Shown here: in pieces, positions 5,627 through 61,511 of the stretch
Position numbering within the stretch: position 1 is the stretch's first letter
Layout: every line of letters starts with the position of its first letter
DNA from: Candidatus Saccharibacteria bacterium RIFCSPHIGHO2_12_FULL_41_12
GTDB taxonomy: Bacteria > Patescibacteriota > Saccharimonadia > Saccharimonadales > 2-12-FULL-41-12
Direction of reading: 5' to 3'
NCBI GenBank assembly: GCA_001790445.1
Contig: MGCQ01000001.1
Span: 187,157-251,156 of the forward strand
DNA: 64,000 nucleotides
The notes under the pieces: generated by a model
Databases searched by the model: none
What the model was told of the DNA's origin: nothing
What the model saw: only the letters and a program-made list of their open reading frames with translations
Translations under genes and position numbers: made by a program

Positions 5627-6016
5627 CCATTTCGATTAAAGCCCCTCAGACTTTTATCACCATACTTTCTTGTGCAAACAAGAAAGTATGCAAAGAAATA
5701 GCAGGCTATTGAAGTAACATGATTGAAATATCTATTCAGGGGCCTGAAACAAAGCAGTCTAAAGTCATAATTAATAATATTTCCAAAGGAAATATACAAG
5801 GGAAGCTTGGGTCAGGCCTTGAGCAGACCTGAGAGATTTCGTCGAGATTACAACTAACAGCTGAGGACTGTTTGAACGACCAAAGGGAGAGAGTTCCGGA
5901 AGCTGTTGTAATCCTCGACAAGAAATCACTTCAAGTCTGTTCAACAGCCTGTCGGTTTTTGGGTTCCGTTTTGCCGATTCAAAATGGAACAAAAGTAGGC
6001 TTGCTTGCAAGCCTAC
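5627..6016 (-). repeat. Family-1 composite structured intergenic element, copy A (short form)
   Basis: Modules present: outer hairpin 5627-5660; HP1 perfect 13-bp hairpin 5661-5690; core long helix arms 5841-5854 / 5905-5919; GC hairpin 5995-6016. The strand given is the one reading GC-hairpin -> core -> HP1. Confidence 0.8.
5981..6016 (-). terminator. Intrinsic terminator-like hairpin downstream of pyrF (this is the GC-hairpin module of family-1 copy A)
   Basis: Minus strand reads GUAGGCUUGCAAGCAAGCCUAC followed by UUUUGUUCCAUUUUG, 23 nt after the pyrF stop. Confidence 0.55.
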
Positions 6017-6039
6017 TATTAAGTGATTGGTGGACTCTA

Positions 6040-10183: not shown

Positions 10184-11107
10184 ATGCATGTGGTGTCCAT
10201 AGACCAGTTTGATAAAGATGCGCTGTTTGAATTATTTACTAAGACCGATCAGATTAAGGAAGCACTTACTAGCCCTTCAGGGAGAAAAAAGCTTGCTGGT
10301 AAACATCGCGATAAACAAATCTGCACACTGTTTTATGAACCGTCAACTCGTACCCGTCTTAGTTTTGAAACTGCCGGCTACAAATTGGGTTTTGGTGTAG
10401 TCAGTACAGAAAGCGCCGGACAATTCTCTTCCGCCAGCAAGGGTGAGACCATGGAAGACACTATGGGAGTACTCGATGGATATGGCTATAGCGCAGTTAT
10501 AATTCGTCATCCAGAGACGGGCATGATTGGGCGAGCTGCAAAAGTAGCAAAAACGCCAATTATTAACGCTGGTGACGGCGCTGGCGAACACCCCACACAG
10601 TCGCTACTCGATACCTACACAATTTACAGCAACTTTGGTCGTTTGGATAATTTAACAGTTACCATGGGCGGAGACCTTAAATATGGCCGTTGTCCGAGGT
10701 CTCTGGCTAAAGTTTTGGCAAAATTTGACGACAATCATATCAAGTTTGTCTCCACCAAGTCCTTGGCTATTGGGCAAGATATAAAAGATTTTTTGAAGCA
10801 AAACAACACCACATATGAAGAAACCTCTGATATAGAAAAGGGCGTTGCTGGTTCTGATGTGATTTATTGGACTAGGCTTCAAAAAGAACGACTAGATGAA
10901 AAAGATAAGGGTCTCGCACATGGGTTTATAATAGACAAAAATACCCTAAAGTTAATGAAAAAAGACGCAATTATTATGCACCCTCTGCCCCGTGTTGACG
11001 AAATAACCACCGATGTTGACGATGACCCTAGAGCCAAATACTTTGAGCAAGCAGGCAACGGACTTCTTATCCGCATGGCCTTGCTCGACACAATTGCTAC
11101 TGAATAA
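10184..11107 (+). CDS. pyrB: Aspartate carbamoyltransferase catalytic subunit
   Basis: STRTR, HPTQ and HPLPR motifs are present. The track ORF starts at GTG 10166, but that would contain the TATAAT box, so ATG 10184 (MHVVSIDQF...) is preferred. Confidence 0.88.
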   Translation: MHVVSIDQFDKDALFELFTKTDQIKEALTSPSGRKKLAGKHRDKQICTLFYEPSTRTRLSFETAGYKLGFGVVSTESAGQFSSASKGETMEDTMGVLDGYGYSAVIIRHPETGMIGRAAKVAKTPIINAGDGAGEHPTQSLLDTYTIYSNFGRLDNLTVTMGGDLKYGRCPRSLAKVLAKFDDNHIKFVSTKSLAIGQDIKDFLKQNNTTYEETSDIEKGVAGSDVIYWTRLQKERLDEKDKGLAHGFIIDKNTLKLMKKDAIIMHPLPRVDEITTDVDDDPRAKYFEQAGNGLLIRMALLDTIATE

Positions 11108-11125
11108 AGAAGTGAACTTCAAAAA

Positions 11126-11669
11126 CAACCTTTCGCCGGCACTAAAGTGCCTGATGCAACATACTTTCTTGTGTTGACAAGAAAGTATGCAAAGAAGCAA
11201 CAGGCGGTTGAACAAACTTGAAGTGATTTCTTGTCGAGGATTACAACAGCTTGCGGAACTCATCCCGCCACGGCGGGGCTCAGACAGTCCTCAGCTGATA
11301 GTTGTAATCTCGACGAAATCTCTCAGGTTTGCTCAAGGCCTGACCAACAATCTGTATATTTTCAAAGAAAATATTATTAATACTTTAGACTGCTTTTGGT
11401 CCCCTTTTAAAAACACCTTTGGATTATTCAATACCAAAACAGATTAATCTGAGGACTAGGCTTTATGCCCGACTGGAAGGAGTCCCGCAAGAGTAGTTTG
11501 TTTTGGTATTGAATAATTAAGGGTAATTGTTTTTAAACCGGGGTGGCACTTTTTGCTTACTTTTTCTTGCTATTGAGAAAAAGTAAGGTGATAAAAGCCT
11601 CTTTGGAGGCTTTAGCGCAATGCAGCTAACCCTTAGTCAAGAATTTTTTGACACAAAAATGGAACAAAG
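11126..11669 (+). repeat. Family-1 composite structured intergenic element, copy B (long, rearranged form)
   Basis: Modules present: outer hairpin 11138-11151; HP1 11160-11189; core arms 11233-11247 / 11301-11314; apical GC hairpin 11264-11277; stem 11423-11442 / 11497-11517 carrying the X module 11451-11488; HP2 11556-11587; outer hairpin 11594-11613; end piece 11650-11669. Confidence 0.8.
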
Positions 11670-11690
11670 ATTTGGTTCTTTGGAAAAGAA

Positions 11691-17426: not shown

Positions 17427-17654
17427 CTAACTGTCGTCGATAGATATTACTTTGATGGAGCTGGTTAGACCTCTGATGATTTCTATTTGAGATTTTGTCA
17501 CGTCGTAGTGCTCCGCCAGCAGTTTGATCACTGCCCTGTTTGCCTTGCCGCCAATCGCAGGCTCTTTAACATGCACCAGCAACGACCCGTCAAAAGCCGG
17601 CTGGACAAACTCGCCTTTTTTACTACTTGGCTTAACCTTGATCGTAACTTTCAT
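17427..17654 (-). CDS. DUF167 (YggU-like) protein
   Basis: 75 aa with the pattern VKPSSKK...V...PA.GGKAN..vikllA, typical of YggU. Confidence 0.7.
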   Translation of the reverse strand: MKVTIKVKPSSKKGEFVQPAFDGSLLVHVKEPAIGGKANRAVIKLLAEHYDVTKSQIEIIRGLTSSIKVISIDDS

Positions 17655-17663
17655 CTTGGTTGG

Positions 17664-17669
17664 ATTATA
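17664..17669 (-). promoter_or_regulatory. -10 box TATAAT 9 nt upstream of the ATG of the DUF167 gene (leaderless-type)
   Basis: Minus strand reads TATAAT-CCAACCAAG-ATG with no SD. Confidence 0.45.
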
Positions 17670-17708
17670 ACAGAGTGCACGTTTTAAGAGGTAAATTTCA
17701 TCAATTCA

Positions 17709-21970: not shown

Positions 21971-22246
21971 TTATGCGTCTCGGATTAATTTGATATCTGT
22001 TATTGCAATGACTTTGTGATAGACATTGGCGGGTATATGGAACATCTTTGGTGATTGTACCTTGGTCGATTCTTCGCCAATTGTTAGCTCAATCTCTCCT
22101 TCAACGAGATACAGCGTTTCAGCCTCTTCGTGGGTATGATCTGCAGAAATTGTACCTTTCTTGCGAACTATGTAGTTAACGGGTTCACAACGGTATATTT
22201 TGCCCCTGTCGTCGTCCTTAATAATTGGGATATCTTGAATTTTCAT
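21971..22246 (-). CDS. Small cupin-domain protein
   Basis: 91 aa with the HTHEEAETLYLVEGE ... H pattern of a cupin metal site. Confidence 0.6.
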   Translation of the reverse strand: MKIQDIPIIKDDDRGKIYRCEPVNYIVRKKGTISADHTHEEAETLYLVEGEIELTIGEESTKVQSPKMFHIPANVYHKVIAITDIKLIRDA

Positions 22247-22848
22247 ATTGGTTTAATTATATCATTTACTTGTTCTACGTTTTTATATAAGTGGGCGTCT
22301 AGACCTAGTCGCTTGCCGGCATCGACGTGTTTTTGTGTATCATCAAAGTAGATTATATCTTCTGGCTTAAGACTTGGGTTCTTGCCACAGATTGCTTCAA
22401 TAACTTTTTTAAAAAAGTCTGTACTTGGTTTTTTTGCTCCAATTTCAGCAGAAATAAAAAATCCGTCAAATTTGCCTTTGAACATTACGTCTTGCATATA
22501 CTTACCACGATATTTCTCTTGGTTAGTCACAACGTAGCATAGAATACCTTGGTTTCGTAACTTGGCAATGTAGTTTAGCAAGGCCTCATTTTGGACGTTC
22601 TCTGTCTCAAACCATAGCTTGAGTAAGTCTTCTACCTCGCCATCCCACCGCCAAATATCGTTATTCTCTGCTATAAGTTGCTTGAGATCTGCCCTGCCCA
22701 CCAACGCATCAGGAAACTTATCTTCAAAAAACTGCTCAAACGATTTTGGATTAAAATCATGCTCTGCGGCATAAATCTGGGCGAACAAACTTTCTGGGAC
22801 GGTGAGCACCCCATCTGCATCAAACAAAACTGCCTTAACTCTTTTCAT
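22243..22848 (-). CDS. HAD-superfamily hydrolase
   Basis: 201 aa with motif I FDADGV and motif IV-like FDD. Confidence 0.75.
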   Translation of the reverse strand: MKRVKAVLFDADGVLTVPESLFAQIYAAEHDFNPKSFEQFFEDKFPDALVGRADLKQLIAENNDIWRWDGEVEDLLKLWFETENVQNEALLNYIAKLRNQGILCYVVTNQEKYRGKYMQDVMFKGKFDGFFISAEIGAKKPSTDFFKKVIEAICGKNPSLKPEDIIYFDDTQKHVDAGKRLGLDAHLYKNVEQVNDIIKPI

Positions 22849-22857
22849 CTTGGTTAG

Positions 22858-22863
22858 ATTATA
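22858..22863 (-). promoter_or_regulatory. Extended -10 (TGC-TATAAT) 9 nt upstream of the ATG of the HAD hydrolase gene (leaderless-type)
   Basis: Minus strand reads AACTGCTATAAT-CTAACCAAG-ATG. Confidence 0.45.
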
Positions 22864-22915
22864 GCAGTTATCCGTACCTACAGTGGGGTTTGGTGGCTGT
22901 GTTTATCCAATATAT

Positions 22916-23422
22916 TTATGAATCTATTTCTAGCTGAATGTAGTCAGCAAAATACCCTTTGTACTTTTCCCGAAGTTTGGGGTTTTTGTAGTCAACCGAG
23001 GGTTTAATGAACTTGCGACATTCTGGTGAACCACACTGACAAGCAAATGACTGGGTATCGCTGGTCCATGCAGTTGCATAATCAACGGTTATTTCTTCAC
23101 CAGCACCGATATCTTTCATTGACCTTACTTCAATTTGACCTGAAATATATGCGTTGGGCGAGCAAGAATGGTTGTAGCCAATCAATGTTCGATCGACTTC
23201 GTCAAAAGTTAACCCTGTCATAAACAGATCTGGCTCAATTTGATGATGTGAACCGTTAATCACATCGGCATGCTTAATTACCGTAGCCTCATCCACAATT
23301 TTACCGGCTTTTACAGCTAGTAGTTCGTGTGCGGAGATATCCTTAATCGCAAAAAGCCCAACGCCTTGAAGACCCCCTTCTCTCCTTTGAACAAAATCAG
23401 ATCGCCAGCATTTCAGTTTCAT
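22916..23422 (-). CDS. SET-domain protein (putative lysine methyltransferase)
   Basis: 168 aa with NHSCSPNA and GEEITVDY motifs plus a post-SET-like CQCGSPEC cluster. Confidence 0.8.
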   Translation of the reverse strand: MKLKCWRSDFVQRREGGLQGVGLFAIKDISAHELLAVKAGKIVDEATVIKHADVINGSHHQIEPDLFMTGLTFDEVDRTLIGYNHSCSPNAYISGQIEVRSMKDIGAGEEITVDYATAWTSDTQSFACQCGSPECRKFIKPSVDYKNPKLREKYKGYFADYIQLEIDS

Positions 23423-23431
23423 CTTGGTTAG

Positions 23432-23437
23432 ATTATA
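23432..23437 (-). promoter_or_regulatory. -10 box TATAAT 9 nt upstream of the ATG of the SET-domain gene (leaderless-type)
   Basis: Minus strand reads ACTGGTATAAT-CTAACCAAG-ATG. The 9-nt spacer is identical to the one at 22849-22857. The box lies in the 10-nt gap and the 3' end of the upstream gene. Confidence 0.45.
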
Positions 23438-24044
23438 CCAGTTTTGCGATTACACGGGATGGGGAGGCTTCTATGTCTAACTTGAGGGGTAATGCCTGGA
23501 CTGTGAATTGTTTGTTTTCTAGCTGGGCGAGGTTGGTTAGATTTTCTATTATTAGCACATCTCCGCTGAGAAGGATTTTGTGGGTGCTAAAAGGTGGCTG
23601 GTCAGGACTGCACATGTCCATACCGACCATACTGATCTTTTTCTCTAATAAATACTGTGCTATTTCTTCTGGAATTTCTGGTGAGTTATCAAAATATTCA
23701 CTCTGCCCATACAGATCACTCATACCCGTATGGAATAACACAATATCGCCTTCTCTAATATCTGTGTTTTTGAGCTTTTCCAGATCAAATATCTTGTTTT
23801 CTACTTTGATATATACTCCCCTGCCAACAAATTTATCTAGTGGGTACTTATCAATGGTCTTGCCGTCTGCAATCATGTGAAGTGGTGCATCAATATGAGT
23901 CCCCACATGCGTACCAACAGATACATAATGGTCATTATAACCATCTTTATCAAAAACCCCAGCTACCTCAATTTTGGTAGCAGGATCTCCCGGATAAACC
24001 GGCGTCCCCTCGTTCAAAACCACAGATAAATCAACTATTTTCAT
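23433..24044 (-). CDS. Cyclase-family protein (kynurenine formamidase-like)
   Basis: 203 aa with the motif HVGTHIDAPLH. Confidence 0.75.
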   Translation of the reverse strand: MKIVDLSVVLNEGTPVYPGDPATKIEVAGVFDKDGYNDHYVSVGTHVGTHIDAPLHMIADGKTIDKYPLDKFVGRGVYIKVENKIFDLEKLKNTDIREGDIVLFHTGMSDLYGQSEYFDNSPEIPEEIAQYLLEKKISMVGMDMCSPDQPPFSTHKILLSGDVLIIENLTNLAQLENKQFTVQALPLKLDIEASPSRVIAKLV

Positions 24045-28504: not shown

Positions 28505-28544
28505 TACCCCCTAATTATACACTCATTTATATAGAATTTGACCA

Positions 28545-29022
28545 ACAACCTTCCGCCGACACCAAGGTGTCTGATGCGTCATACTTTCTTGTGTTGACAA
28601 GAAAGTATGCAAAGAAACAACAGGCTATTGAATAACATTATTGAAATATCTAAACAATTAACCCAGTTTCTGCGGGACTCCTTCCAGTCGGGCTAAAGCC
28701 TAGTCCTCAAAACATGGCGTTAATCGCTCAGATATTTCATCAGTTATTAAATGGCCTGAAATTTAGTTGCTAGATTATTAATAATATTTTCATAGAAAAT
28801 ATACACTCTGCTTCTGGTCAGGCCTTGAGCAGACCTGAGAGATTTCGTCGAGATTACAACTATTAGACGAGGACTGTCTGAATGACCAAAGGGAGAGAGT
28901 TCCGCAGTCTGTTGTAATCCTCGACTAGAAATCCCACCCGGGTCTGTTCAATCGCCTGTCGGTTTTGGGTTCCGTTTTGCCGAAACAAAATGGAACAAGA
29001 AATGGCTTGCTTGCAAGCCTGC
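28545..29022 (-). repeat. Family-1 composite structured intergenic element, copy C (long form with X module)
   Basis: Modules present: outer hairpin 28558-28571; HP1 28580-28609; X module 28672-28708; core arms 28847-28860 / 28911-28925; GC hairpin 29004-29019. Confidence 0.8.
28985..29022 (-). terminator. Intrinsic terminator-like hairpin downstream of the 29041-29697 gene (GC-hairpin module of copy C)
   Basis: Minus strand reads GGCUUGCAAGCAAGCC followed by AUUUCUUGUUCCAUUUUG, about 20 nt after the stop. Confidence 0.45.
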
Positions 29023-29040
29023 TAATTAGAAATTTCTTAT

Positions 29041-40093: not shown

Positions 40094-40096
40094 GAC

Positions 40097-40261
40097 CTAC
40101 ACACCACACCTTTCTGCCGACCAGCGAAGCTGCCCACTCCAAAGGTGTTCTTGGCGTAGAATCAATTTTTTATTTGTGATACTCACTCCGCCGTACCAAA
40201 TGTACGACTTGTTCCGTTTCTCAATAATAAAATTGATTCTACGTCCAAGTGTGTTGGTCAT
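40097..40261 (-). CDS. Small ORF (54 aa) inside family-2 structured element, stop 3 nt before the pyrG ATG
   Basis: Manual translation gives MTNTLGRRINFIIEKRNKSYIWYGGVSITNKKLILRQEHLWSGQLRWSAERCGV. It is a paralogue of the ORF at 50000-50173, sharing EK.NK.Y..YGGV...QE.LW...AERC. It is below the track's 60-aa cutoff, and its coding status is uncertain. Confidence 0.4.
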   Translation of the reverse strand: MTNTLGRRINFIIEKRNKSYIWYGGVSITNKKLILRQEHLWSGQLRWSAERCGV

Positions 40262-41623: not shown

Positions 41624-41650
41624 TAGACAGATGCGTATTTTAAGCAAAAT

Positions 41651-41823
41651 CTAAGGAGGAAGAGACCTTCCCAAGGTTTTCCCTCCGCCAATTCCCTAAT
41701 TGATAATACACACATCAATCATTACTTGCTCATTATTGATGTGTGCCCATGGAAAGGGAGGATCCCGAAGCTTTAGCTGAGGCTAAGGAGGCGAAAAACC
41801 TCTCTGGGTTTTCCCTCCTTAAG
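41651..41823 (-). repeat. Family-3 3'-flank structured element, copy F (downstream of the CHAP hydrolase gene)
   Basis: Three parts are present. The SD/anti-SD-like hairpin spans 41783-41823. The conserved ccatggaaagggaggatc occupies 41747-41764 on the plus strand. The hairpin 41709-41719 / 41735-41745 and a third hairpin at 41651-41687 complete the element. Confidence 0.65.
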
Positions 41824-41825
41824 GC

Positions 41826-42935
41826 TTAGAAGTGGATGAAGGCAAGCCCAGCAGGGCTAATATTATAACCTTCGGAATATGTTCCGTTATATGAGTAGTT
41901 ATAATCACTAACATTAATCGTGCCGTTAGGGTTAACACTTTCGACGTACATAGAGTGACCATAATAGCCAACATTCATAATTGCAATATCACCTGCACGT
42001 GGGGAACCATCTACGGGGATTCCTTCAGCGCGAGCGTTATCATCCCATTGGTTAGCATTGCCCCGTCCACCCCAATACGGCATATAGCCTCGAGTTTCAT
42101 AGACTTTCCAGGCGGTGTAACTAACACATTCACGGTTATACATACCCCAACTGTCCAACATAGAGTCTTGAGGAGAATTCCGCCAAATATTCGGATAGGT
42201 ATCACGACCATTTGATCCGGCAACAACTCTTGAGCCATTACCTTGAAAGAATTTGGCGTTTTCTGCAGCTTGCTGTGAGCGAAGCTGAGAGGCCTTTGCG
42301 CTATTGTCTTTGATCTGGGCATTTAGCGCGTCTTGCTGACCTTGGTTTAGCCCTAACAAACGATCATTTTCTGCGCGTTGAGCGACTATCTGATTTTGTA
42401 GAATTTGCTGTTCTGCAATAATTTTCTCTGTAGTTGCTTTTTGCGTGCTAAGATCTAGTTTAAGCTGTTGCACGCGATCAAGTGTGGCTTTTACTTTGTT
42501 CTGAACGCTTTCTTTATATTGCTGCTTGTCAAAGAATTCGCTTAAGTCTTTTGATGATGCCAACATCTCTAGCGTACTAACGTCCCCATCCAAATACATA
42601 CTTTTAATTATTCCGCCAAGTATAGTGCGCTGTTTGGCTAATTCTACCTCTGCTTTTGCTATCTCAATCTTTAGCTCTTCGATCTTTTTGCGATTGGCAT
42701 CAATTTTATTTTGCATAGCGTTAATATCGGCTTGGAGTTTCGATATAGTGTCTGCTAAAGAAGTGGCTTCCGCACCAAGTTGAGAATTCTGAGTTTGTTT
42801 GACAGAGGTGTCTTGGTTCAAAGCTCTAATCTGATCATCAAATCTATCCGCCCGCACCATTGGCACTATCAAAACAGCCACTACAAAACCCGTTACGGTA
42901 GTGGTATAAAGTGCTGTTTTGAGTTGTCTTCTCAT
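41826..42935 (-). CDS. Secreted coiled-coil plus CHAP-domain peptidoglycan hydrolase (PcsB-like)
   Basis: 369 aa with a signal/TM, about 200 aa of coiled coil, and a C-terminal CHAP domain with Cys (NRECVSYTAW) and His (YGHSMYVESV). Lies downstream of ftsEX. Confidence 0.8.
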   Translation of the reverse strand: MRRQLKTALYTTTVTGFVVAVLIVPMVRADRFDDQIRALNQDTSVKQTQNSQLGAEATSLADTISKLQADINAMQNKIDANRKKIEELKIEIAKAEVELAKQRTILGGIIKSMYLDGDVSTLEMLASSKDLSEFFDKQQYKESVQNKVKATLDRVQQLKLDLSTQKATTEKIIAEQQILQNQIVAQRAENDRLLGLNQGQQDALNAQIKDNSAKASQLRSQQAAENAKFFQGNGSRVVAGSNGRDTYPNIWRNSPQDSMLDSWGMYNRECVSYTAWKVYETRGYMPYWGGRGNANQWDDNARAEGIPVDGSPRAGDIAIMNVGYYGHSMYVESVNPNGTINVSDYNYSYNGTYSEGYNISPAGLAFIHF

Positions 42936-42989
42936 TAATTAACCTTGTCTATTGATGATATTGTTTTATTTTTGTTATCCAGTTGTTTT

Positions 42990-43018
42990 ATTCTAACAAA
43001 AAACGTAAGCTTTTTCAA
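42990..43018 (-). promoter_or_regulatory. Sigma70-type promoter for the CHAP hydrolase gene
   Basis: Minus strand reads TTGAAA (43018-43013), then a 17-nt spacer, then TAGAAT (42995-42990), about 55 nt upstream of the ATG. Confidence 0.45.
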
Positions 43019-43125
43019 GTGATAAATCCTCAAATTGCAAGATATTTGACAAAGTCTATGTTGTGCGGCTAAAACACTTCACATTTAATGCGATACGGCT
43101 CAGGTGGGTATAGTACGATCTAACA

Positions 43126-43600
43126 GCATTGCGATAAAACCTTACACGCTTTTTATCACCTTACTTTTTCTCAGTAGCAAGAAAAAGTAAGCAAAAAGTG
43201 CCACCCTTAGCTAAAAACAATCCATGAACTATTCAAACAACCTCTTAGCAGGCTTGCAGGCAAGCCATCTCTTGTTCCATTTTTGTGTCGACAAAAACGG
43301 AACCCAAAAAACGACAGGCTATGAACAGACTTGATGAGACTACCAGTCGATAGTTACAACAGCCTGCGGAACTCAGCCAGTAAACTGGCTTCAAACAGTC
43401 CTCGCCTTAGTAGTTGTAACATCGACGTAGTCTCTCGGGTCTGGTTCATGGCCTGAGAAGGCTTCCCTAGTATATTTCCTTAGGAAATATTATTAATCAT
43501 GACTTTAGACTGCTATTGGTCAGGCTGTTGTTTGTTTGTATACTTTCTTGTCAACACAAGAAAGTATGGTGATTAAATCCTTGAGCTTTAAGTGCAATGG
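43126..43600 (+). repeat. Family-1 composite structured intergenic element, copy D (both hairpin ends present, most divergent core)
   Basis: Modules present: left end with HP2 43160-43191; GC hairpin 43251-43266; core arms 43346-43360 / 43413-43426; apical hairpin 43375-43390; HP1 43540-43567; right end to 43600. Confidence 0.8.
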
Positions 43601-46264: not shown

Positions 46265-47304
46265 GCCAAAAATTATCAGAAATAGACATAACATATGGCG
46301 AAAACCCCCAGCAAAAATGCTACGGCATTGATATGGCGACTGGAGTCGCAAATGACCCACTCGCCATCGGTAATTTTGAGCTAACTCAGGGTGCAAATCC
46401 AAGTTTTTGTAATATAACAGATTTGGACAGAATGCTCCAAACAATCACTCACATCGCTGCTGTGTATTTTCTAAACACAGGCAAAACTCCACTGATTGCT
46501 ATCGGTGCAAAACACGGTAATGCCTGTGGTGTTAGTGTTAGCGAGAACTGGGAGCAAGCCGTTCATAACATGCTAAATGGTGATCTGCGGGCTATTTTTG
46601 GCGGATCGATAATGGTCAGCTTCCCCGTTGATGGCGAAATAGCTAACGAGCTAGTCACTTATAATTCAAAGTTTGGCAAAAGACTGCTGGATATGGTGGT
46701 GGCTCCGTTTTTTACTCCAGAAGCTCTAGAAGTTCTGCAAAGGAAAAATGGAAAACTCCGTCTTTTTGCTAACCCGGCGCTAGCTACATTGGATAAAAAT
46801 TCTCTTGACTGCCAAAAAAGAGACCGATACCTGCGTGGTGGACATATCACTCAGGATAATTACACAAATATTTTTGATTTTAAATCTCCCGCAGTAACCA
46901 AAAATGCTATCGAGATGTCTGAGGGGCAAAAGAGCTCACTCATGCTTGCTTGGGCAATCGCTGTGACCAGTAACAGCAACACAATTACATTGGTCAAAGA
47001 CAATATGCTTATCGGCAACGGCGTAGGACAGCAAGACCGAGTTTCTGCCGCAGAACTTGGCGTCAAAAGAGCTAGCGCCGCCGGACATGACACCAATGGA
47101 TCAGTGGCTTTTGGTGATAGTTTCTTCCCGTTCACGGACGGCCCAGAGGTCTTGGCAAAAGCTGGCGTTAGTGCAATACTCACCACTAATGGCTCCGTCA
47201 AAGACGCCGAAGTTGCGAAGTCTCTAACAGATAGAAATGTTGTCTTCTGGACTGTACCTGACAATGCTGGCTCCGACTCCGGGCGTGGCTTCTACGCCCA
47301 CTAA
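46261..47304 (+). CDS. purH: AICAR transformylase domain only (PurH C-terminal half, no MGS-like IMPCH domain)
   Basis: 347 aa with YGENPQQK, AKHGNACGV and GDSFFPFTDG motifs of the AICARFT domain. The length matches the transformylase half alone. Confidence 0.8.
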   Translation: MSQKLSEIDITYGENPQQKCYGIDMATGVANDPLAIGNFELTQGANPSFCNITDLDRMLQTITHIAAVYFLNTGKTPLIAIGAKHGNACGVSVSENWEQAVHNMLNGDLRAIFGGSIMVSFPVDGEIANELVTYNSKFGKRLLDMVVAPFFTPEALEVLQRKNGKLRLFANPALATLDKNSLDCQKRDRYLRGGHITQDNYTNIFDFKSPAVTKNAIEMSEGQKSSLMLAWAIAVTSNSNTITLVKDNMLIGNGVGQQDRVSAAELGVKRASAAGHDTNGSVAFGDSFFPFTDGPEVLAKAGVSAILTTNGSVKDAEVAKSLTDRNVVFWTVPDNAGSDSGRGFYAH

Positions 47305-47309
47305 GAAAC

Positions 47310-47421
47310 CTTAAGGAGGGGAAACCCAAAAAGGTTTTTCGCCTCCTTAGACTACGCTATCGCTCCGTGATCCTCCCTTTCCATAGTTAATAATTCTGAT
47401 GAGTAAATAATCAGAATTATT
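47310..47421 (+). repeat. Family-3 3'-flank structured element, copy G (downstream of purH)
   Basis: The SD/anti-SD-like hairpin spans 47310-47350 (cttaaggaggggaaaccc-aaaaa-ggtttttcgcctccttag). The conserved gatcctccctttccat occupies 47369-47384. The hairpin 47389-47400 / 47410-47421 follows. Confidence 0.65.
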
Positions 47422-49996: not shown

Positions 49997-49999
49997 AAC

Positions 50000-50173
50000 C
50001 TATGCAACACACCTTTCTGCTAACTGGCAAAGCCAGCAATTCCAAAGGTATTCTTGACCAAAAACAGCTTTTTCTTTTGCGAGATTCACTCCACCGTACT
50101 TCAGGTACGGCTTGTTCCATTTCTCAAAGAGAAAAGCTGTTTTTAACTCAAGTGCAAAGGTTATGATTTTCAT
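50000..50173 (-). CDS. Small ORF (57 aa) inside family-2 structured element, overlapping the secA stop (TAATG) and ending 3 nt before the M16 start
   Basis: Manual translation gives MKIITFALELKTAFLFEKWNKPYLKYGGVNLAKEKAVFGQEYLWNCWLCQLAERCVA. It is a paralogue of 40097-40261 and below the track cutoff. Its coding status is uncertain. Confidence 0.45.
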   Translation of the reverse strand: MKIITFALELKTAFLFEKWNKPYLKYGGVNLAKEKAVFGQEYLWNCWLCQLAERCVA

Positions 50174-53480: not shown

Positions 53481-54557
53481 CTAAGCGCGCACCAATAGAA
53501 GTTCTTGCTTGGGTAACGGATAATATCTTTCTGTCGGTTTGAAACTACCTCCTTGTTTGAAATAGCCATCAACATCAGTCATTATTTGGTTTGCAATCGC
53601 TTCTGCAAATTTTACAGGAACTGCGTTACCTATCATTTTGTAACCATCTGAAATATTTGTGTATACGAATTGAAAATCATCTGGAAATGTCTGGATTCTA
53701 GCGCATTCACGAACACTCAATCGCCTATAAAGTGATTCTTTCCCTTTCACAAAAATCTGTTTATTTTCACCAACCTTCATCATCTTTGGCGCATCTGGGT
53801 GTATTGGTGCATGTCTACCACCTGCTTGTATAGTGAAGGATGGTTCATCCCAGGATCTAACTCTATTGCGCGACATGTATATTGTAGAGAAACCACCATT
53901 CATATACTCATGGTTAGGAGTTTCCAATTTATTTCCATGGGTCTTATTTTTATCTTTTGCAGGTTCTGCTGTTTTTCTCAAATCCCAGATGGAATCTTTT
54001 AAATTCTTTTTGTTCTCATCAACAATCGATTCGGGAAAACTAAACTTCTTGCCAAGTTTTTTATCATAGCCAATAAAAAATACTCTCTTCCTATCTTCAG
54101 GGACACCGTAATCATACGCATTTAAGAGCTTATATGTGAAGTGATACCCAAGTTTTTCAAATTCTTCAATAATGAAATCTAAAGAATCTTTGTGCCTGAC
54201 AGAAAGCATACCAGAAACATTTTCGGCGAGAAAAAAAAGTGGTTTCTTGTCTCTTATTACTCGTATATATTCGAGGAATATTTGTCCTCTTCTGTCTCCA
54301 AGACCTCTGCCCGCCCCAGCTTCACTCCAACTTTGACAAGGTGGACCGCCAATTATTCCAATAGCGTTAGGTATTTGAGCAGATGGGATGATTCCTAAAT
54401 TTCTGTCATCTACCTCTGTTTCTGGGAAGTTTAAACGAAGTGTAGGTGTAATTGTTTCATCAAACTCGTTAGCCCATTTTAGGTGAAAGCCCGCATTATG
54501 AAAGCCAAGGTCAAGACCTCCTGCACCACTAAATAGAGATACGAGGTCAAACTTCAT
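53481..54557 (-). CDS. DNA (cytosine-5)-methyltransferase, M.HaeIII-like (probable GGCC specificity)
   Basis: 358 aa with motifs FSGAGG, PPCQSWS, ENV and GNAVP. The variable region (DKNKTHGNK..PNHEY..STIYMSRNRVRSWDEPSFTIQAGGR) closely resembles my recollection of the M.HaeIII target-recognition domain. Confidence 0.85.
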   Translation of the reverse strand: MKFDLVSLFSGAGGLDLGFHNAGFHLKWANEFDETITPTLRLNFPETEVDDRNLGIIPSAQIPNAIGIIGGPPCQSWSEAGAGRGLGDRRGQIFLEYIRVIRDKKPLFFLAENVSGMLSVRHKDSLDFIIEEFEKLGYHFTYKLLNAYDYGVPEDRKRVFFIGYDKKLGKKFSFPESIVDENKKNLKDSIWDLRKTAEPAKDKNKTHGNKLETPNHEYMNGGFSTIYMSRNRVRSWDEPSFTIQAGGRHAPIHPDAPKMMKVGENKQIFVKGKESLYRRLSVRECARIQTFPDDFQFVYTNISDGYKMIGNAVPVKFAEAIANQIMTDVDGYFKQGGSFKPTERYYPLPKQELLLVRA

Positions 54558-55428
54558 AGCTGATAATCCTTGCTTCTATTAATTTTACCGGGTTATTTGG
54601 ATCTGATATCTGAACTTTGTTCATGATCATTTTATCATCAAGCTGTGCTTCAAATTTTAATCTTGACTCTTCTGGGAAAGAAAGATATTTACTGTCAAGA
54701 AGAAGGCAATACGCGCGAAACATAGCATCTTTTCTAGACTTAGGAATAATATCTTCGAATACTACAGCCGGATTTTTGACAATCCACATACCTCTTACTC
54801 GTAGACGAGTAATACCTAATGGATCTATCTTTGGCACCACGGCTAATTCATTAGTGTCAGAAAGTTCGGTTTTATCAAAACTTTGAGATATAGCACCGGT
54901 AATTCTTTGCGCCGCTTTTTCGTAAACACCATGTTCAGCGGCAAAACAATCACCATAGATAAACCAGAGTCTTGTGAGCAACTTATCCTTTCCGACAGAA
55001 CCTACGGCATAAAATATATCCTTTTGAGTCCAGTTTTCCTTAAGAGCAAGTTCTCTGCACGTTTTATTGATTCTCGTGTCTGAAGCCAGAAGGCACGCTT
55101 TTGGTGGGGAGCTATTCAACTGAATACTCGCTGTTAATGAATCAACTTTTTTTACTTCAATTGCATCTCCATTTTTCAAGATCATATCTGGAGGGTTATT
55201 TGAATTTCCTGCATATGCGAAAACCTTAAAATGTGCCTTCTTTTTCACAGCTTTACTCTTTATTTTCAAAGTGTCTGAGAACAAATCTTTGATATAATCT
55301 TCTAGGCCTGATCCTATTTTTTGTATGCTATTGCCACTGACTCCGTCAGATACAGATAATTCTACATTTTCTTTGAGAAAAATAAGAGCATTCAGGATAT
55401 TATTTTTTGATATGTTTCTTTTACCCAT
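54547..55428 (-). CDS. Type II restriction endonuclease (partner of the m5C methyltransferase)
   Basis: 293-aa ORF directly upstream of the methyltransferase, overlapping it by 11 nt. SD GAGAGGG. No general family motif recognised, so the call rests on context. Confidence 0.6.
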   Translation of the reverse strand: MGKRNISKNNILNALIFLKENVELSVSDGVSGNSIQKIGSGLEDYIKDLFSDTLKIKSKAVKKKAHFKVFAYAGNSNNPPDMILKNGDAIEVKKVDSLTASIQLNSSPPKACLLASDTRINKTCRELALKENWTQKDIFYAVGSVGKDKLLTRLWFIYGDCFAAEHGVYEKAAQRITGAISQSFDKTELSDTNELAVVPKIDPLGITRLRVRGMWIVKNPAVVFEDIIPKSRKDAMFRAYCLLLDSKYLSFPEESRLKFEAQLDDKMIMNKVQISDPNNPVKLIEARIISYEV

Positions 55429-57999: not shown

Positions 58000-58075
58000 A
58001 CAGGTCAAAAGCCTCAACAGTTAGATTTACTTACCTCCTCCTAACGGGCTTACACACATATGGAAATCTTGTGTC

Positions 58076-58547
58076 GGCTTGCAAGCAAGCCTGATTTTGT
58101 TCCATTTTGAATCGACAAAACGGAACCCAAAAACCGACAGGCGGTTGAGCAGACTTGATGGGATTTCTTGTCGAGGATTACAACAGACTGTGGAACTCTC
58201 TCCCTTTGGTCGTTCAAACAGTCCTCGTCTGATAGTTGTAATCTCGACGAAATCTCTCAGGTCTGCTCAAGGCCTGACTAACAATCTGTATATTTTCTTA
58301 GAAAATATTATTAATAATCTAGCCGCTTAAGCTCCAGGCCCTTGGATAACTGATGAAATATTTCTTCAAGCAACACCATGTTTTGAGGACCAGGCTTTAG
58401 CCCGACCATAGGGAGTCCCGCAAAAACTGGGTTGATTGAAGAGATATTTCAATAATGTTACTTCAATAGCCTGCTATTTCTTTGCATACTTTCTTGTTAG
58501 TACAAGAAAGTATGGTGATTAAAGCCTGGGAGGGTTTAAGCGCAATG
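58076..58547 (+). repeat. Family-1 composite structured intergenic element, copy E (long form with X module)
   Basis: Modules present: GC hairpin 58076-58091; core helix 58146-58270 with arms 58170-58184 / 58235-58248; AT hairpin 58291-58310; X module 58385-58421; HP1 58485-58514; outer hairpin 58521-58537. Confidence 0.8.
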
Positions 58548-58564
58548 AAGCTGTTGCGGATAAA

Positions 58565-59262: not shown

Positions 59263-60525
59263 CTATTTTAATTCTAACACGGCTAGACACTCGATGTGGG
59301 GCGTCCGCGGGAAAAAATTATAGACTACAAAATCTACTACTGAGTACGCCCCGAGCAAGCCAATGTCTCTCATCATGGTCACAGGGTTGCATGAAAGATA
59401 CACCACAGCCTTGGGTTTCACTTCTGATATAGCGAGGGTTACGTTTTTATGAAGTCCCGCCCGTGGGGGATCAACAATTAATATTTTGTCTTTTGTGACG
59501 CATTCCAATGCCTTTTCGCCCTGGGCTTGGATAATTTTTGCTTGCATTTTACTAGTATTCACCTTGGCATATTTAATATTTACAGGTTCGCTCTCTACAA
59601 TTACCGTATCTTTTGCGCCAATTCCCACGCTGATCGTCCCTACCCCGCCGTACATGTCTATAATTGGTTGATCACCAACGTAGTGAGCAATTCTGGCTAT
59701 TGCCAGCTCAAAAACTGGCAGATTAACCTGGAAAAACCCAAGAACTCCATAAGATATATTTTTGTCATTGATAGTTTCGGTTAAAACTTCTTTTCCAAAA
59801 CTCTGTAACTTCTCTGTTGGCAAAGAAGCTGGACTCTGAGGATTAGAATAATATACAAAAAACCCTGTAAACATGTCTGGGACTACAAGTTCAGGAAAAT
59901 CTTTTATCTTAGCGAACAGACAGCCTACTACGTCGCCACTGCTGCTGGTTCTGATGATCAAGGACTTAAGATCACTAGCACGTACATTTTGCGCCTTTAG
60001 TAGCTCTACGGTGGCCGTTGCGACGATATCTATTCTGTCGTCCGCCAAAGCAGAGCCAGAAACGATATTTTTATAATGAGTTCCTCTTTTGAATAATGCC
60101 AGATGAAGTCCCTGCTCATCACCGTAAAAGCTGTATTCCATTTTGTTGCGGTAGCCATAGCTCGATGATTCATCTATATGATTGGCTACCTCAAATTCCG
60201 GCAAAGTTATATTGTGTTGAACCGCCGCGTCAATAACTAACGCCTTTTTTGAGAAAGTCTCATAATTATAATCCATAATTTGCCACGGGCTGGTAGAAAG
60301 ATAGCTTTCGGGCTCTTTGGCTTCAATTCTGTGGCTTGAGGGCTCCAAAACGTTCTGGACTATACCTTCTGCATAGGAATTTTTGCTACGCGTCAGCCTA
60401 ACCTCTACCAACTCTGTCGGCAATCCACCCCAAACAAAGATTTTTTTGCCTGATTGAAGCACTCCAAGAGCTTGCCCGCCCTGAATTAGTTTGTTTATTC
60501 TAACTTTTTCTAGTTTTTTTAGCAT
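59263..60525 (-). CDS. TRAM-domain RNA (uracil-5-)-methyltransferase (RlmD/TrmA family)
   Basis: 420 aa with an N-terminal TRAM-like OB, a SAM fold and the catalytic Cys motif YLSCNP. Confidence 0.75.
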   Translation of the reverse strand: MLKKLEKVRINKLIQGGQALGVLQSGKKIFVWGGLPTELVEVRLTRSKNSYAEGIVQNVLEPSSHRIEAKEPESYLSTSPWQIMDYNYETFSKKALVIDAAVQHNITLPEFEVANHIDESSSYGYRNKMEYSFYGDEQGLHLALFKRGTHYKNIVSGSALADDRIDIVATATVELLKAQNVRASDLKSLIIRTSSSGDVVGCLFAKIKDFPELVVPDMFTGFFVYYSNPQSPASLPTEKLQSFGKEVLTETINDKNISYGVLGFFQVNLPVFELAIARIAHYVGDQPIIDMYGGVGTISVGIGAKDTVIVESEPVNIKYAKVNTSKMQAKIIQAQGEKALECVTKDKILIVDPPRAGLHKNVTLAISEVKPKAVVYLSCNPVTMMRDIGLLGAYSVVDFVVYNFFPRTPHIECLAVLELK

Positions 60526-61511
60526 TATTTGTGCAGAGCTATGGCCAGCACGACATAAACCAAGATTTTCGTTACAAGGTCAATCCTGACAAAGTTCCTC
60601 TCGTAATATATAAAATCTTTGTTCTTACCTGATACGTAACGATATTGATTGACAGCAAATCCAACAAACCCAAGCACGACAACCGCAGACACCACATAGA
60701 CATACCAAGCCAGATTATCTGTAGCCAAGATATATGTGCCCACCGTTGCCCCACAAATTGCTACCCAAGCAACAACTCCTGTAAATAGCGATGCAATGGA
60801 AGCCAGCCAATCAGACTTTTTGCTGTTTGCGTTGTTTCTATCACTGATGAAACCTAGAACAACTGTGGCTACAATTAGTCCTGCAGACATCTTTAGAACT
60901 GCTAAATCATTTAGCCCGACCAACAGCCCGACAAAAGTTAGCGTAATAACTGATGAAATACCAAGATAAATCCACCGCGGCGCTGAAGCTTTGTTTTTCA
61001 AAGATTTTTCGTACATACCACGCTTTTTGGTCGCTGTGATTGCATAACAGACTGCAGAAATAATTAGCAAACCAACCAATACCCACCGTAGGTCAACGGT
61101 GAAAAGATCTTTGACCCCAAGAAGTTGTTGCTGTGGATTCTGAGCCAAGTAGTCTTTTGTCTGATAATAGACCGACACTGTGCCATAAAATGGTTTTATA
61201 ACTAATGCTGTTAGCACTCCAAGCAACACATAGATCAGTGCTGATGATGATACCAAACTATTTAGTTTAACTAGCTTTTCATTATCTTTGTTGCCAAATC
61301 TTGAGGCTAGTGCTGACGCCTTTTGTTTAATTACGCTAAAAATCGCAGGTGATTTCGCTCCTTCGTTGCTCACTGCGGGTGTTGGCGCTTTAGTATTTTT
61401 AGTTACTTTAGTAGTTGCCTTTTTTGCTGGGGCTTTAGTGACTTTTTTTGCTGGCTTTTTTACGGCCTTTTTTGTCGTTTTTTTGGTTGATTTATTACTC
61501 TTCTCACTCAT
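60525..61511 (-). CDS. Hypothetical polytopic membrane protein with a Lys-rich N-terminal tail
   Basis: 328 aa. About 50 aa of K/T/A-rich sequence is followed by about 7 TM helices. Confidence 0.5.
   Translation of the reverse strand: MSEKSNKSTKKTTKKAVKKPAKKVTKAPAKKATTKVTKNTKAPTPAVSNEGAKSPAIFSVIKQKASALASRFGNKDNEKLVKLNSLVSSSALIYVLLGVLTALVIKPFYGTVSVYYQTKDYLAQNPQQQLLGVKDLFTVDLRWVLVGLLIISAVCYAITATKKRGMYEKSLKNKASAPRWIYLGISSVITLTFVGLLVGLNDLAVLKMSAGLIVATVVLGFISDRNNANSKKSDWLASIASLFTGVVAWVAICGATVGTYILATDNLAWYVYVVSAVVVLGFVGFAVNQYRYVSGKNKDFIYYERNFVRIDLVTKILVYVVLAIALHK

Follow-up and report, generated by a model that had tools for sequence, protein, structure and literature searches.

A structured repeat copy at the end of pyrB in a groundwater Candidatus Saccharibacteria genome appears to be a mosaic of family modules rather than an inverted element

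How does one copy of a dispersed repeat come to carry its core the wrong way round relative to one of its ends? The question is raised by a locus at the 3' end of pyrB in a stretch of 64,000 nucleotides from Candidatus Saccharibacteria bacterium RIFCSPHIGHO2_12_FULL_41_12 (contig MGCQ01000001.1, positions 187,157 to 251,156), which is referred to here as the window and whose own numbering is used throughout. The window harbours five copies, labelled A to E, of a non-coding, highly structured repeat that resembles the miniature inverted-repeat elements (MITEs) of other bacteria, and copy B, which lies behind pyrB, is a member of this family. A preliminary description of the locus had proposed that the interior of B was flipped by inversion between two inverted copies of a 12-mer, or that one element had been inserted into another, and that the family is or was recombinationally active. 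The analysis reported here supports the activity; B itself is, in our judgement, probably a fixed mosaic that arose by exchange between copies of the family, and not the outcome of an inversion in place or of a phase-variable switch. What looks like an inversion within a repeat can result from the swapping of end modules that stand in for one another.

All five copies are intergenic and 400–520 nt long, lie in either orientation relative to the flanking genes, and make up about 4% of the 64-kb stretch. A pattern for the core matched five times in the window and a pattern for the characteristic HP hairpin seven times, against none expected by chance, so that the repeat is not a chance pattern; the only open reading frame (ORF) of at least 90 amino acids that overlaps any copy, at 10952-11263 on the minus strand, is mostly antisense to pyrB. 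Alignment of the copies gives a common plan, in which an asymmetric core stands between two inward-pointing end modules. On one side the core consists of a rod, an imperfect hairpin of about 48 bp that runs from an internal CAGGCCTTGAG to a right-hand TTCAAnnGCCTG and bears a variable apical hairpin; 7 of its 48 predicted pairs show compensatory changes among the six copies compared. The other side holds a conserved AT-rich palindrome and, in B, C and E as well as in two copies from outside the window (L004, from the Hainich aquifer, and L005), a long hairpin with a stem sequence that varies from copy to copy. Each end module is formed, in order, by an outer part, an AT-rich hairpin of 11–13 bp, a purine linker that is the mirror of the hairpin's 3' arm, a complement of the hairpin loop, and the motif CAGGCnnTTGA, which is present in the HP1 and GTTCC types and lacking in the HP2 type. 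At least four sequence types can be told apart, namely HP1 with a CATTGCG terminus, HP1 of a ‘beta’ kind, HP2, and the GTTCC hairpin. The layout of the GTTCC segment (GTTCCATTTTG-loop-CAAAACGGAAC-CCAAAAAC-CGA-CAGGC…) aligns at every position with that of HP1 (CATACTTTCTTGT-loop-ACAAGAAAGTATG-CAAAGAAG-CAAC-AGGC…), which makes the two segments paralogous modules and the GTTCC segment no separate kind of end. The end modules are inverted repeats at the level of architecture, and the terminal sequence CATTGC…/…GCAATG is found at both extremes of D, at one end of A, B and E, and at neither end of C.

Copy A (5628-6020, plus strand) runs from an HP1 end through the core to a GTTCC hairpin and a GC hairpin; C (28534-29025, plus) has a beta-type HP1 end, the long hairpin, the core, and the GTTCC and GC hairpins; and E (58073-58552, minus) follows the plan of C with an HP1 end of the CATTGCG type. 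In these three the GTTCC-type module is on the rod side and HP1 on the far side. Copy D (43127-43600, minus) has an HP1 end, the core, and the GTTCC and GC hairpins, with an extra, inverted HP2 module at 43127-43236. The five HP1 modules of the window lie at 5660-5707, 11159-11206, 28579-28626, 43522-43569 and 58468-58515. The 12-mer on which the proposed inversion depended matches the exact pattern CAGGCNNTTGA, which occurs seven times in the window, every time within a copy of the family. It forms an inverted pair in each of A, C and E, in A at 5702-5713 (CAGGCTATTGAA) and 5940-5951 (TTCAACAGCCTG), coordinates that had been given correctly, and is single in B. A further copy, one base shorter (CAGGCCTTGAG), had been overlooked within every core, where it pairs with the right-hand 12-mer and closes the hairpin of about 48 bp; the right-hand 12-mer is one strand of the rod base, and the left-hand 12-mer beside HP1 is the third of the set.

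Comparison with relatives establishes what was added at the pyrB locus. The PyrB protein of the window is 100% identical to that of Candidatus Saccharibacteria bacterium RIFCSPHIGHO2_12_FULL_41. The site is empty in five related Saccharibacteria lineages, whose pyrB is 77–80% identical, and no intermediate was found in any of them. In relatives, pyrB and a convergent DNA-alkylation-repair gene overlap by 4 nt; in a Hainich relative the spacer between the two genes is 105 nt with a plain hairpin within it, as compared with 583 nt in the window. The last sense codon of pyrB (…ACTGAA) now ends at 11104, while the displaced ancestral end, AGCTAA, stands at 11624-11629 in a relic reading AGC TAA CCCTTAG (AGCTAACCCTTAG, 11624-11636, plus strand), which matches the end of the Hainich gene (L130, AGCTAA|CCTTAG). 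Removal of the insertion restores an in-frame …IATES* ending; with it in place (11099-11107 and 11624-11629), pyrB has lost its last codon, …IATES* having become …IATE*, and a new TAA stop is supplied. Empty sites and displaced gene end together show that B, relative to the former, is one contiguous insertion of 519 nt, at 11105-11623. No target-site duplication is seen at its junctions (…ACTGAA|TAAAG… and …CAATGC|AGCTAA). A fragment resembling the GTTCC hairpin (11644-11671, plus strand), noted earlier beyond the HP2 end, does match D (90% identity over 29 nt to 43295-43267), but it begins about 20 nt past the end of B, and at least 13 of those nucleotides (11624-11636), which had not been recognised as ancestral, belong to the old pyrB end; the fragment lies beyond the relic and is therefore no part of the B insertion. 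The site of D is likewise empty in a relative (L135, FtsX 86% identical), with a spacer of 689 nt in the window versus 111 nt, so the family has moved in this lineage; at D too no target-site duplication is seen. Past the extra HP2 module of D, at 42936-43126, there are about 100 nt without a counterpart in the empty site of L135 or in the other copies.

Read from the pyrB side, B opens with the outer leader of an HP1 end of the beta type (11105-11159, plus), the first three bases of which are the new TAA stop; it contains a small GC hairpin, GGCACTAAAGTGCC (11138-11151, plus), that covaries with GACACCAAGGTGTC of C. The HP1 hairpin, CATACTTTCTTGT-GTTG-ACAAGAAAGTATG (11160-11189, plus), is followed by the purine linker CAAAGAAG and CAAC (11190-11201, plus); the linker mirrors the 3' arm of the hairpin and CAAC complements its loop. 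The 12-mer CAGGCGGTTGAA (11201-11212, plus) serves as the junction between HP1 module and core and as one strand of the rod base, and pairs with CTCAAGGCCTG at 11332-11342. The core rod, an imperfect hairpin of about 48 bp (11201-11342, minus), has the orientation of D and E, arms 97% and 95% identical to those of A, and a copy-specific apical hairpin, CCCGCCACGGCGGG (11264-11277, minus). Beyond it lie the AT-rich palindrome GTATATTTTCAAAGAAAATATTATTAATAC (11354-11383, minus), kept in all copies, and the optional long hairpin (11421-11518, minus), whose stem, GGATTATTCAATACCAAAAC / GTTTTGGTATTGAATAATT, surrounds a conserved GGGACTCC…GTCCTC centre. Then comes the HP2 module (11540-11587, minus), the second proper end of B, which the preliminary description had missed; its hairpin, CTTACTTTTTCT-8 nt-AGAAAAAGTAAG, occupies 11556-11587, and its linker and loop complement (reverse complement CAAAAAGTGCCACCCC) occupy 11540-11555. 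The outer part of this end (11588-11622, minus) comprises ATCACC, a small hairpin and the terminus CATTGCGC, which reads GCGCAATG at 11615-11622 on the plus strand. The HP2 region shares 92% identity with D's additional HP2 module, and the terminus is common to ends of A, D, E and L004 and resembles the terminal inverted repeat of a Bacteroidales MITE, CAyTGTTGTCCGATAAAAA. A covariance model made from modules of other phyla only recovers the HP1 module of B (11159-11206, plus, 51.1 bits) and its HP2 module (11539-11588, minus, 22.2 bits), so that the two modules point inward and the ends of B are arranged as in every other copy; the same model finds inward-pointing modules at both ends of D. 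The whole is predicted to fold strongly: B and the next 5 nt (11105-11628) reach -196.6 kcal/mol (z = -11.5), and E has z = -9.1.

Several statements of the preliminary description can be kept on this anatomy. The HP1 end of B, with GCAAAGAAGCAA, is indeed joined by way of CAGGCGGTTGAA (11201-11212) to that side of the core on which A, C and E bear the GTTCC and GC hairpins, and B does lack both hairpins next to its core. That its interior is flipped is right in part: the core has the orientation of D and E and the HP1 end that of A and C, but the rest of B is collinear with E, 11192-11627 of B aligning with 58129-58552 of E (both on the plus strand) over 444 nt, the HP2 hairpin at 11556-11587 included. 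The core looks flipped relative to HP1 because the types of module differ, B having an HP1-beta module on the rod side, where A, C and E have the GTTCC type, and HP2 on the far side. L004 shows the same HP2 end, long hairpin and core as B, but a normal GTTCC end.

The modules of B do not share one closest relative. Module-by-module identities and a 40-nt sliding comparison among the seven core-bearing copies (A to E, L004 and L005) place segment 11404-11623 nearest to L004 (39 of 40 positions at 11544-11583), segment 11204-11383 nearest to A and E (36–39 of 40), and segment 11124-11215 nearest to the left end of C (28544-28635, inverted, 88% identity). The change from L004 to A and E falls near 11384-11400, and the rod of L004 is itself D-like (95–98%). 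Copy A is also mosaic, with a palindrome region like that of D and L004 and a rod like that of E. Since the closest relative changes from module to module within a copy, the family has exchanged segments, which bears out the recombinational activity proposed at the outset. The joint between HP1 and rod can be located closely. CAAC, up to 11201, is the intact complement of the HP1 loop GTTG, and the variable dinucleotide of the B 12-mer is GG, the rod-side type as in E, whereas A, C, E and L005 have TA in the 12-mer next to HP1. With CAAC coming from HP1 and GG from the rod side, the crossover lies within about AGGC (11202-11205), in agreement with the earlier placing of the junction at the 12-mer. 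These few bases (…AC|AGGC…) are common to all rod-side modules, and the joint reproduces a normal module-to-rod junction base for base.

Taken together, the intact second end, the shifting relationships along B and the single 12-mer make a fixed mosaic the probable reading. Such a patchwork would have come about by homologous or microhomology-mediated recombination, gene conversion or template switching between copies; the hairpin and triplex-like modules, being prone to cause stalling, would probably have helped the exchange, and the product would be a fixed historical state rather than a reversible switch. Some points weigh against this reading. The seven core-bearing copies compared do not fix the order of the exchanges or their timing relative to the insertion, and orientation is seen in assemblies only, so that a minority orientation may be present in the population. 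Neither B nor D has a visible target-site duplication, and no autonomous partner element was found in the searches described below. The beta leader (TTCAAAAACAACCTTTCGCC with its GC hairpin; 11105-11159 and 28520-28579) resembles TTCAAACAACCTCTTAGCAGGC… beside the GC hairpin of D (43215-43262); the beta end may have been of the GTTCC type before its hairpin was converted to HP1, and the rod-side module of B may be a converted GTTCC module instead of an imported C-type one. Finally, that the modules promoted the exchange is something we only infer.

Among the alternatives, it is unlikely, though the best placed of them, that B consists of two pieces, side by side or nested, i.e. a solo HP1-beta module beside a truncated HP2-core element, or an insertion followed by deletion between directly repeated 12-mers. 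Isolated modules do exist, as copy D has beside it a single HP2 module that carries about 40 nt of interior, and the GTTCC-like fragment stands only 21 nt past B. On the other hand, B is one contiguous 519-nt block when set against the empty sites, the fragment lies beyond the ancestral pyrB relic, no relative examined shows an intermediate state, and the joint of HP1 and rod is a normal junction to the base; the nested insertion proposed earlier is weakened accordingly. An interim model of an outer C-type shell, holding a nested and inverted L004-type element and later reduced by deletion, was dropped since the GTTCC-like fragment is found beyond ancestral sequence.

A different view is that B belongs to a sub-lineage which is old and transposes on its own, with HP2 end, core and HP1-beta end as its regular plan, and that nothing was rearranged at or near this locus. 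The insertion of B as one unit agrees with it, as do the HP1 modules of other phyla, which directly precede hairpin-rich sequence, and the presence of HP-type modules at both ends of a Comamonas element and at both extremes of D. No second copy of the B type is found among the seven available, however, and the three segments of B with different closest relatives require exchange at some point regardless, which makes this view quite improbable.

The inversion in place has less in its favour. It would require that a C-like copy at the site flipped its interior between inverted 12-mers, possibly as a reversible phase-variable switch, and two facts do suggest it: the HP1-beta end of B and the left end of C share 88% identity, with the joint exactly at the 12-mer, and the 12-mer is an inverted pair in A, C and E. 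Yet such a flip would leave a 12-mer and a GTTCC hairpin at the distal side, where B has an intact HP2 end that is collinear with L004, with an identical spacing of 53 nt. The rod of B is A/E-like, not C-like, and its HP2 side is L004-like. Moreover, since B holds a single 12-mer, there is no partner for re-inversion; the 12-mer pairs only with the 11-mer of the rod base, at a distance of 120 nt, and both belong to one hairpin. Two further assemblies show one orientation only, and a scan of 65 ORFs of the window, which encode housekeeping proteins and an NgoPII-type restriction-modification pair, gave no recombinase, integrase, invertase, transposase or reverse-transcriptase domain. We consider an inversion at this site very improbable. 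A chimera, in which the assembler joined two copies through the shared HP1 hairpin, can be set aside as extremely improbable: a Logan contig built with k=31 does stop at 11157, just 5' of HP1, owing to about 37 identical bases common to B and C there, but a MEGAHIT k141 contig and the original scaffold agree with the B locus (0 and 1 difference over 6.9 kb), the shared exact stretches are far below 141 nt, and the joint is a regular module-rod junction.

The interchangeable module itself extends well beyond this genome. The core pattern has no match in public genome representatives or viral contigs and two in metagenomes. The HP1 palindrome, ACTTTCTTGT-N6-ACAAGAAAGT, is found at 120 or more loci, often at contig ends, in Bacteroidota, Oscillospiraceae, Rhodocyclales and others, and in six viral contigs (loci L006-L125, L126 and L136-L141 lie outside the window). 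The module sequence is nearly identical across Saccharibacteria, Bacteroidota, Oscillospiraceae, Rhodocyclales/Comamonas and some viral contigs, and in all cases that could be oriented the palindrome is followed by 2–3 nt, CAAAGAA, a single base, and then a complement to the loop of the hairpin. This complement covers at least four contiguous nucleotides in 63 of 78 unique modules, 56 of them at one fixed offset, compared with 14.7 in shuffles. In a set of 52 distinct modules, 87–100% of the sequences form the four best loop/flank pairs, and they do so by several types of pair; covariation scores 0.385 as against 0.10 in shuffled sets (none of 500 reached 0.385) and 0.04–0.06 when partner columns were slid. 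Where the 3' arm differs in variant modules, the linker differs with it in mirror register: AAGAAAAG is accompanied by GAAAAGAAG at six loci, an A7 arm by CAAAAAAAG, and the AGAAAAAG of HP2 by CAAAAAG. Such register is, on the sequences at hand, hard to explain except by a three-stranded fold.

In other phyla the module is also part of larger elements. In Faecousia and in a Bacteroidales metagenome-assembled genome it lies inside elements of 430–520 nt with terminal inverted repeats, those of Bacteroidales having clear terminal repeats and 9-bp target duplications, and in a Comamonas plasmid it stands at both ends of a palindromic element of about 600 nt. HP-type modules also occur nested in, or in tandem with, other copies (L009 at about 6966 and at 373 on the minus strand, L110, L096 and L044), and one Faecousia element has an extra inserted CTCCCTTTCTTG…CAAGAAAGGGAG module; modules may insert or duplicate on their own. 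A scan with Rfam 15 at gathering thresholds gave no match in the window, nor did the HP1 motif of 18 related loci match any family, and permissive scans of B, E and the Comamonas element returned hairpin-like noise only. No neighbouring protein recurs at 120 HP1 loci, a plasmid search for HP1 carriers yielded the one Comamonas locus and no autonomous partner, and a literature search by sequence and keyword found no description of the module, the one pertinent paper being on intrastrand triplexes in general.

These regularities allow a more tentative proposal, which we regard as possible though less than even in probability: the end module would be an A/T-rich intrastrand triple-helix pseudoknot, formed by the hairpin, a mirror third strand and the loop/flank helix, and would, as a conserved and functional fold, delimit non-autonomous elements of a widespread, so far undescribed kind. 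A mobilising enzyme could recognise it in single-stranded DNA, or it could form a triple helix that protects the 3' end of transcripts. Most likely the modules act as single strands, either as DNA during replication or transposition or as RNA in read-through transcripts, and their stable folds may promote template switching or recombination between copies and so shuffle modules as in B; if the triplex proposal holds, stalling of replication by the module would lead to the module swapping seen there. A dedicated, stand-alone small-RNA gene is unlikely, as a promoter scan of the copies gave no consistent promoter, the GC hairpin with its T-run resembles a terminator on one strand alone, that opposite to the A orientation, and copies lie in both orientations. 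Assignment of a functional strand by G·U pairs was abandoned, the signals being in conflict (a conserved G·T of the GTTCC hairpin on the A-orientation strand, that of the rod base on the other), and both strands of the repeat fold about equally well.

Several known systems resemble the family in part. Bacterial MITEs are non-autonomous miniature inverted-repeat elements such as Correia/NEMIS, ERIC, RUP and Nezha. Like them, the family is short (400–520 nt), non-coding, multi-copy and intergenic, occurs in either orientation at gene ends, is strongly self-complementary, and is present or absent between relatives. Unlike in them, neither a target duplication nor a clean terminal inverted repeat could be shown for B or D, and the end modules are folded units of 60–110 nt with loop/flank covariation, which the binding of a transposase to a duplex does not require; no autonomous partner was found, there being no transposase among the window ORFs, no recurrent neighbour at 120 HP1 loci and none in plasmids. 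Palindrome-associated transposable elements (PATEs) of the IS200/IS605 type have subterminal hairpins, lack target duplications and insert 3' of a fixed tetra- or pentanucleotide, with TnpA in the genome. The hairpins and the lack of target duplication would fit our family; the flanks of its six CATTGCG termini (CTT, TTC, CTG, CAG, CCT and ACC) show no common target, and no TnpA is present among the window ORFs. Bacterial interspersed mosaic elements (BIMEs), the mosaic repetitive extragenic palindromic (REP) elements of enterobacteria, are composed of hairpin modules in alternating orientation and other short motifs. A few hairpin module types in different combinations at different loci are likewise found here, although there is no sequence relation, a large conserved core is present, and the modules are triplex-like pseudoknots, not simple REP palindromes. 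Invertons are phase-variable DNA inversions, e.g. fimS and the promoter flips of Bacteroides. As in these, a segment between short inverted repeats is seen in two orientations among copies, but the two orientations are at different loci and are not alleles, B has one copy of the repeat, no recombinase is encoded nearby in the window ORFs, and the segment has no consistent promoter.

Two further likenesses concern the fold of the module. Telomerase RNA and the SAM-II riboswitch contain H-type pseudoknots with a major-groove U·A-U triple helix. On the pyrimidine strand of the module, stem 1 would correspond to the loop complement, and a U-rich loop 1 (UUCUUUG) would lie beside AAGAAAG, in Hoogsteen register with the purine arm of stem 2, which follows; there is no homology, the module occurs in both orientations relative to neighbouring genes, and a role as RNA is hypothetical. 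The linear layout is that of the class II purine motif of the PIT/BoxC/TMECO repeats, made of a pyrimidine arm, a loop of 3–6 nt, a purine arm, a 3-nt loop and a mirror purine arm (Holder et al. 2015, PMC4666352); these motifs are multi-copy and intergenic, and loci that hold them are reported to be more rearranged among Escherichia coli strains (PMC4666352). The module, as ACTTTCTTGT-loop-ACAAGAAAGT-3 nt-CAAAGAAG, has the class II layout and is a predicted triplex. It differs from TMECO (CCCTCNCCC-N3-6-GGGNGAGGG-N3-GGGNGAGGG), which is G/C-rich and proteobacterial, in being A/T-rich and of different sequence, and membership of TMECO was rejected as its consensus is not matched. It also differs from the whole group in an extra helix of 4–6 bp, from the hairpin loop to the sequence after the mirror arm, and in forming part of larger elements in Saccharibacteria, Bacteroidota, Oscillospiraceae and Rhodocyclales.

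The window holds other features of note. A second, unrelated intergenic repeat of about 138 nt occurs at 40095-40232 and 49998-50135 (73% identity between copies); the spacer between the genes for SecA and an M16 peptidase, which holds one of them, is 0 nt in L135, so this repeat also looks like an insertion. A third, small repeat with TAAGGAGG…CCCTCCTTAAGG hairpins is found in inverted orientation at 41640-41835 and 47298-47384, and the spacer between the release-factor and PurH genes is 306 nt in the window versus 2 nt in L135. Four copies of a 32-nt motif lie at the starts of minus-strand genes (17649-17680, 22241-22272, 22843-22874 and 23417-23448); the best of them (22843-22874) reads, on the coding strand, TATAAT, 9 nt, ATG, and the motif probably represents a promoter common to these genes, whose leader would be very short. 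At 53481-55428, genes for an NgoPII-type restriction endonuclease and a C5 DNA methylase form a strain-specific restriction-modification island, where the syntenic region of L135 has a short-chain dehydrogenase gene. A gene of the heliorhodopsin family (Pfam PF18761, E = 1e-28) is located at 60525-61511.

For the organism, copy B shows that a repeat family has moved and recombined recently in a streamlined Saccharibacteria genome. One insertion has clipped the last codon of pyrB, and the family occupies about 4% of the stretch, so that it helps to shape gene ends here. Copy B alone is a modest result, and the end module is the more interesting object. If its fold is real and functional, the module would link the poorly understood intrastrand triplex repeats of bacteria to mobile elements, and would offer a concrete object for the study of how such structures drive rearrangement.

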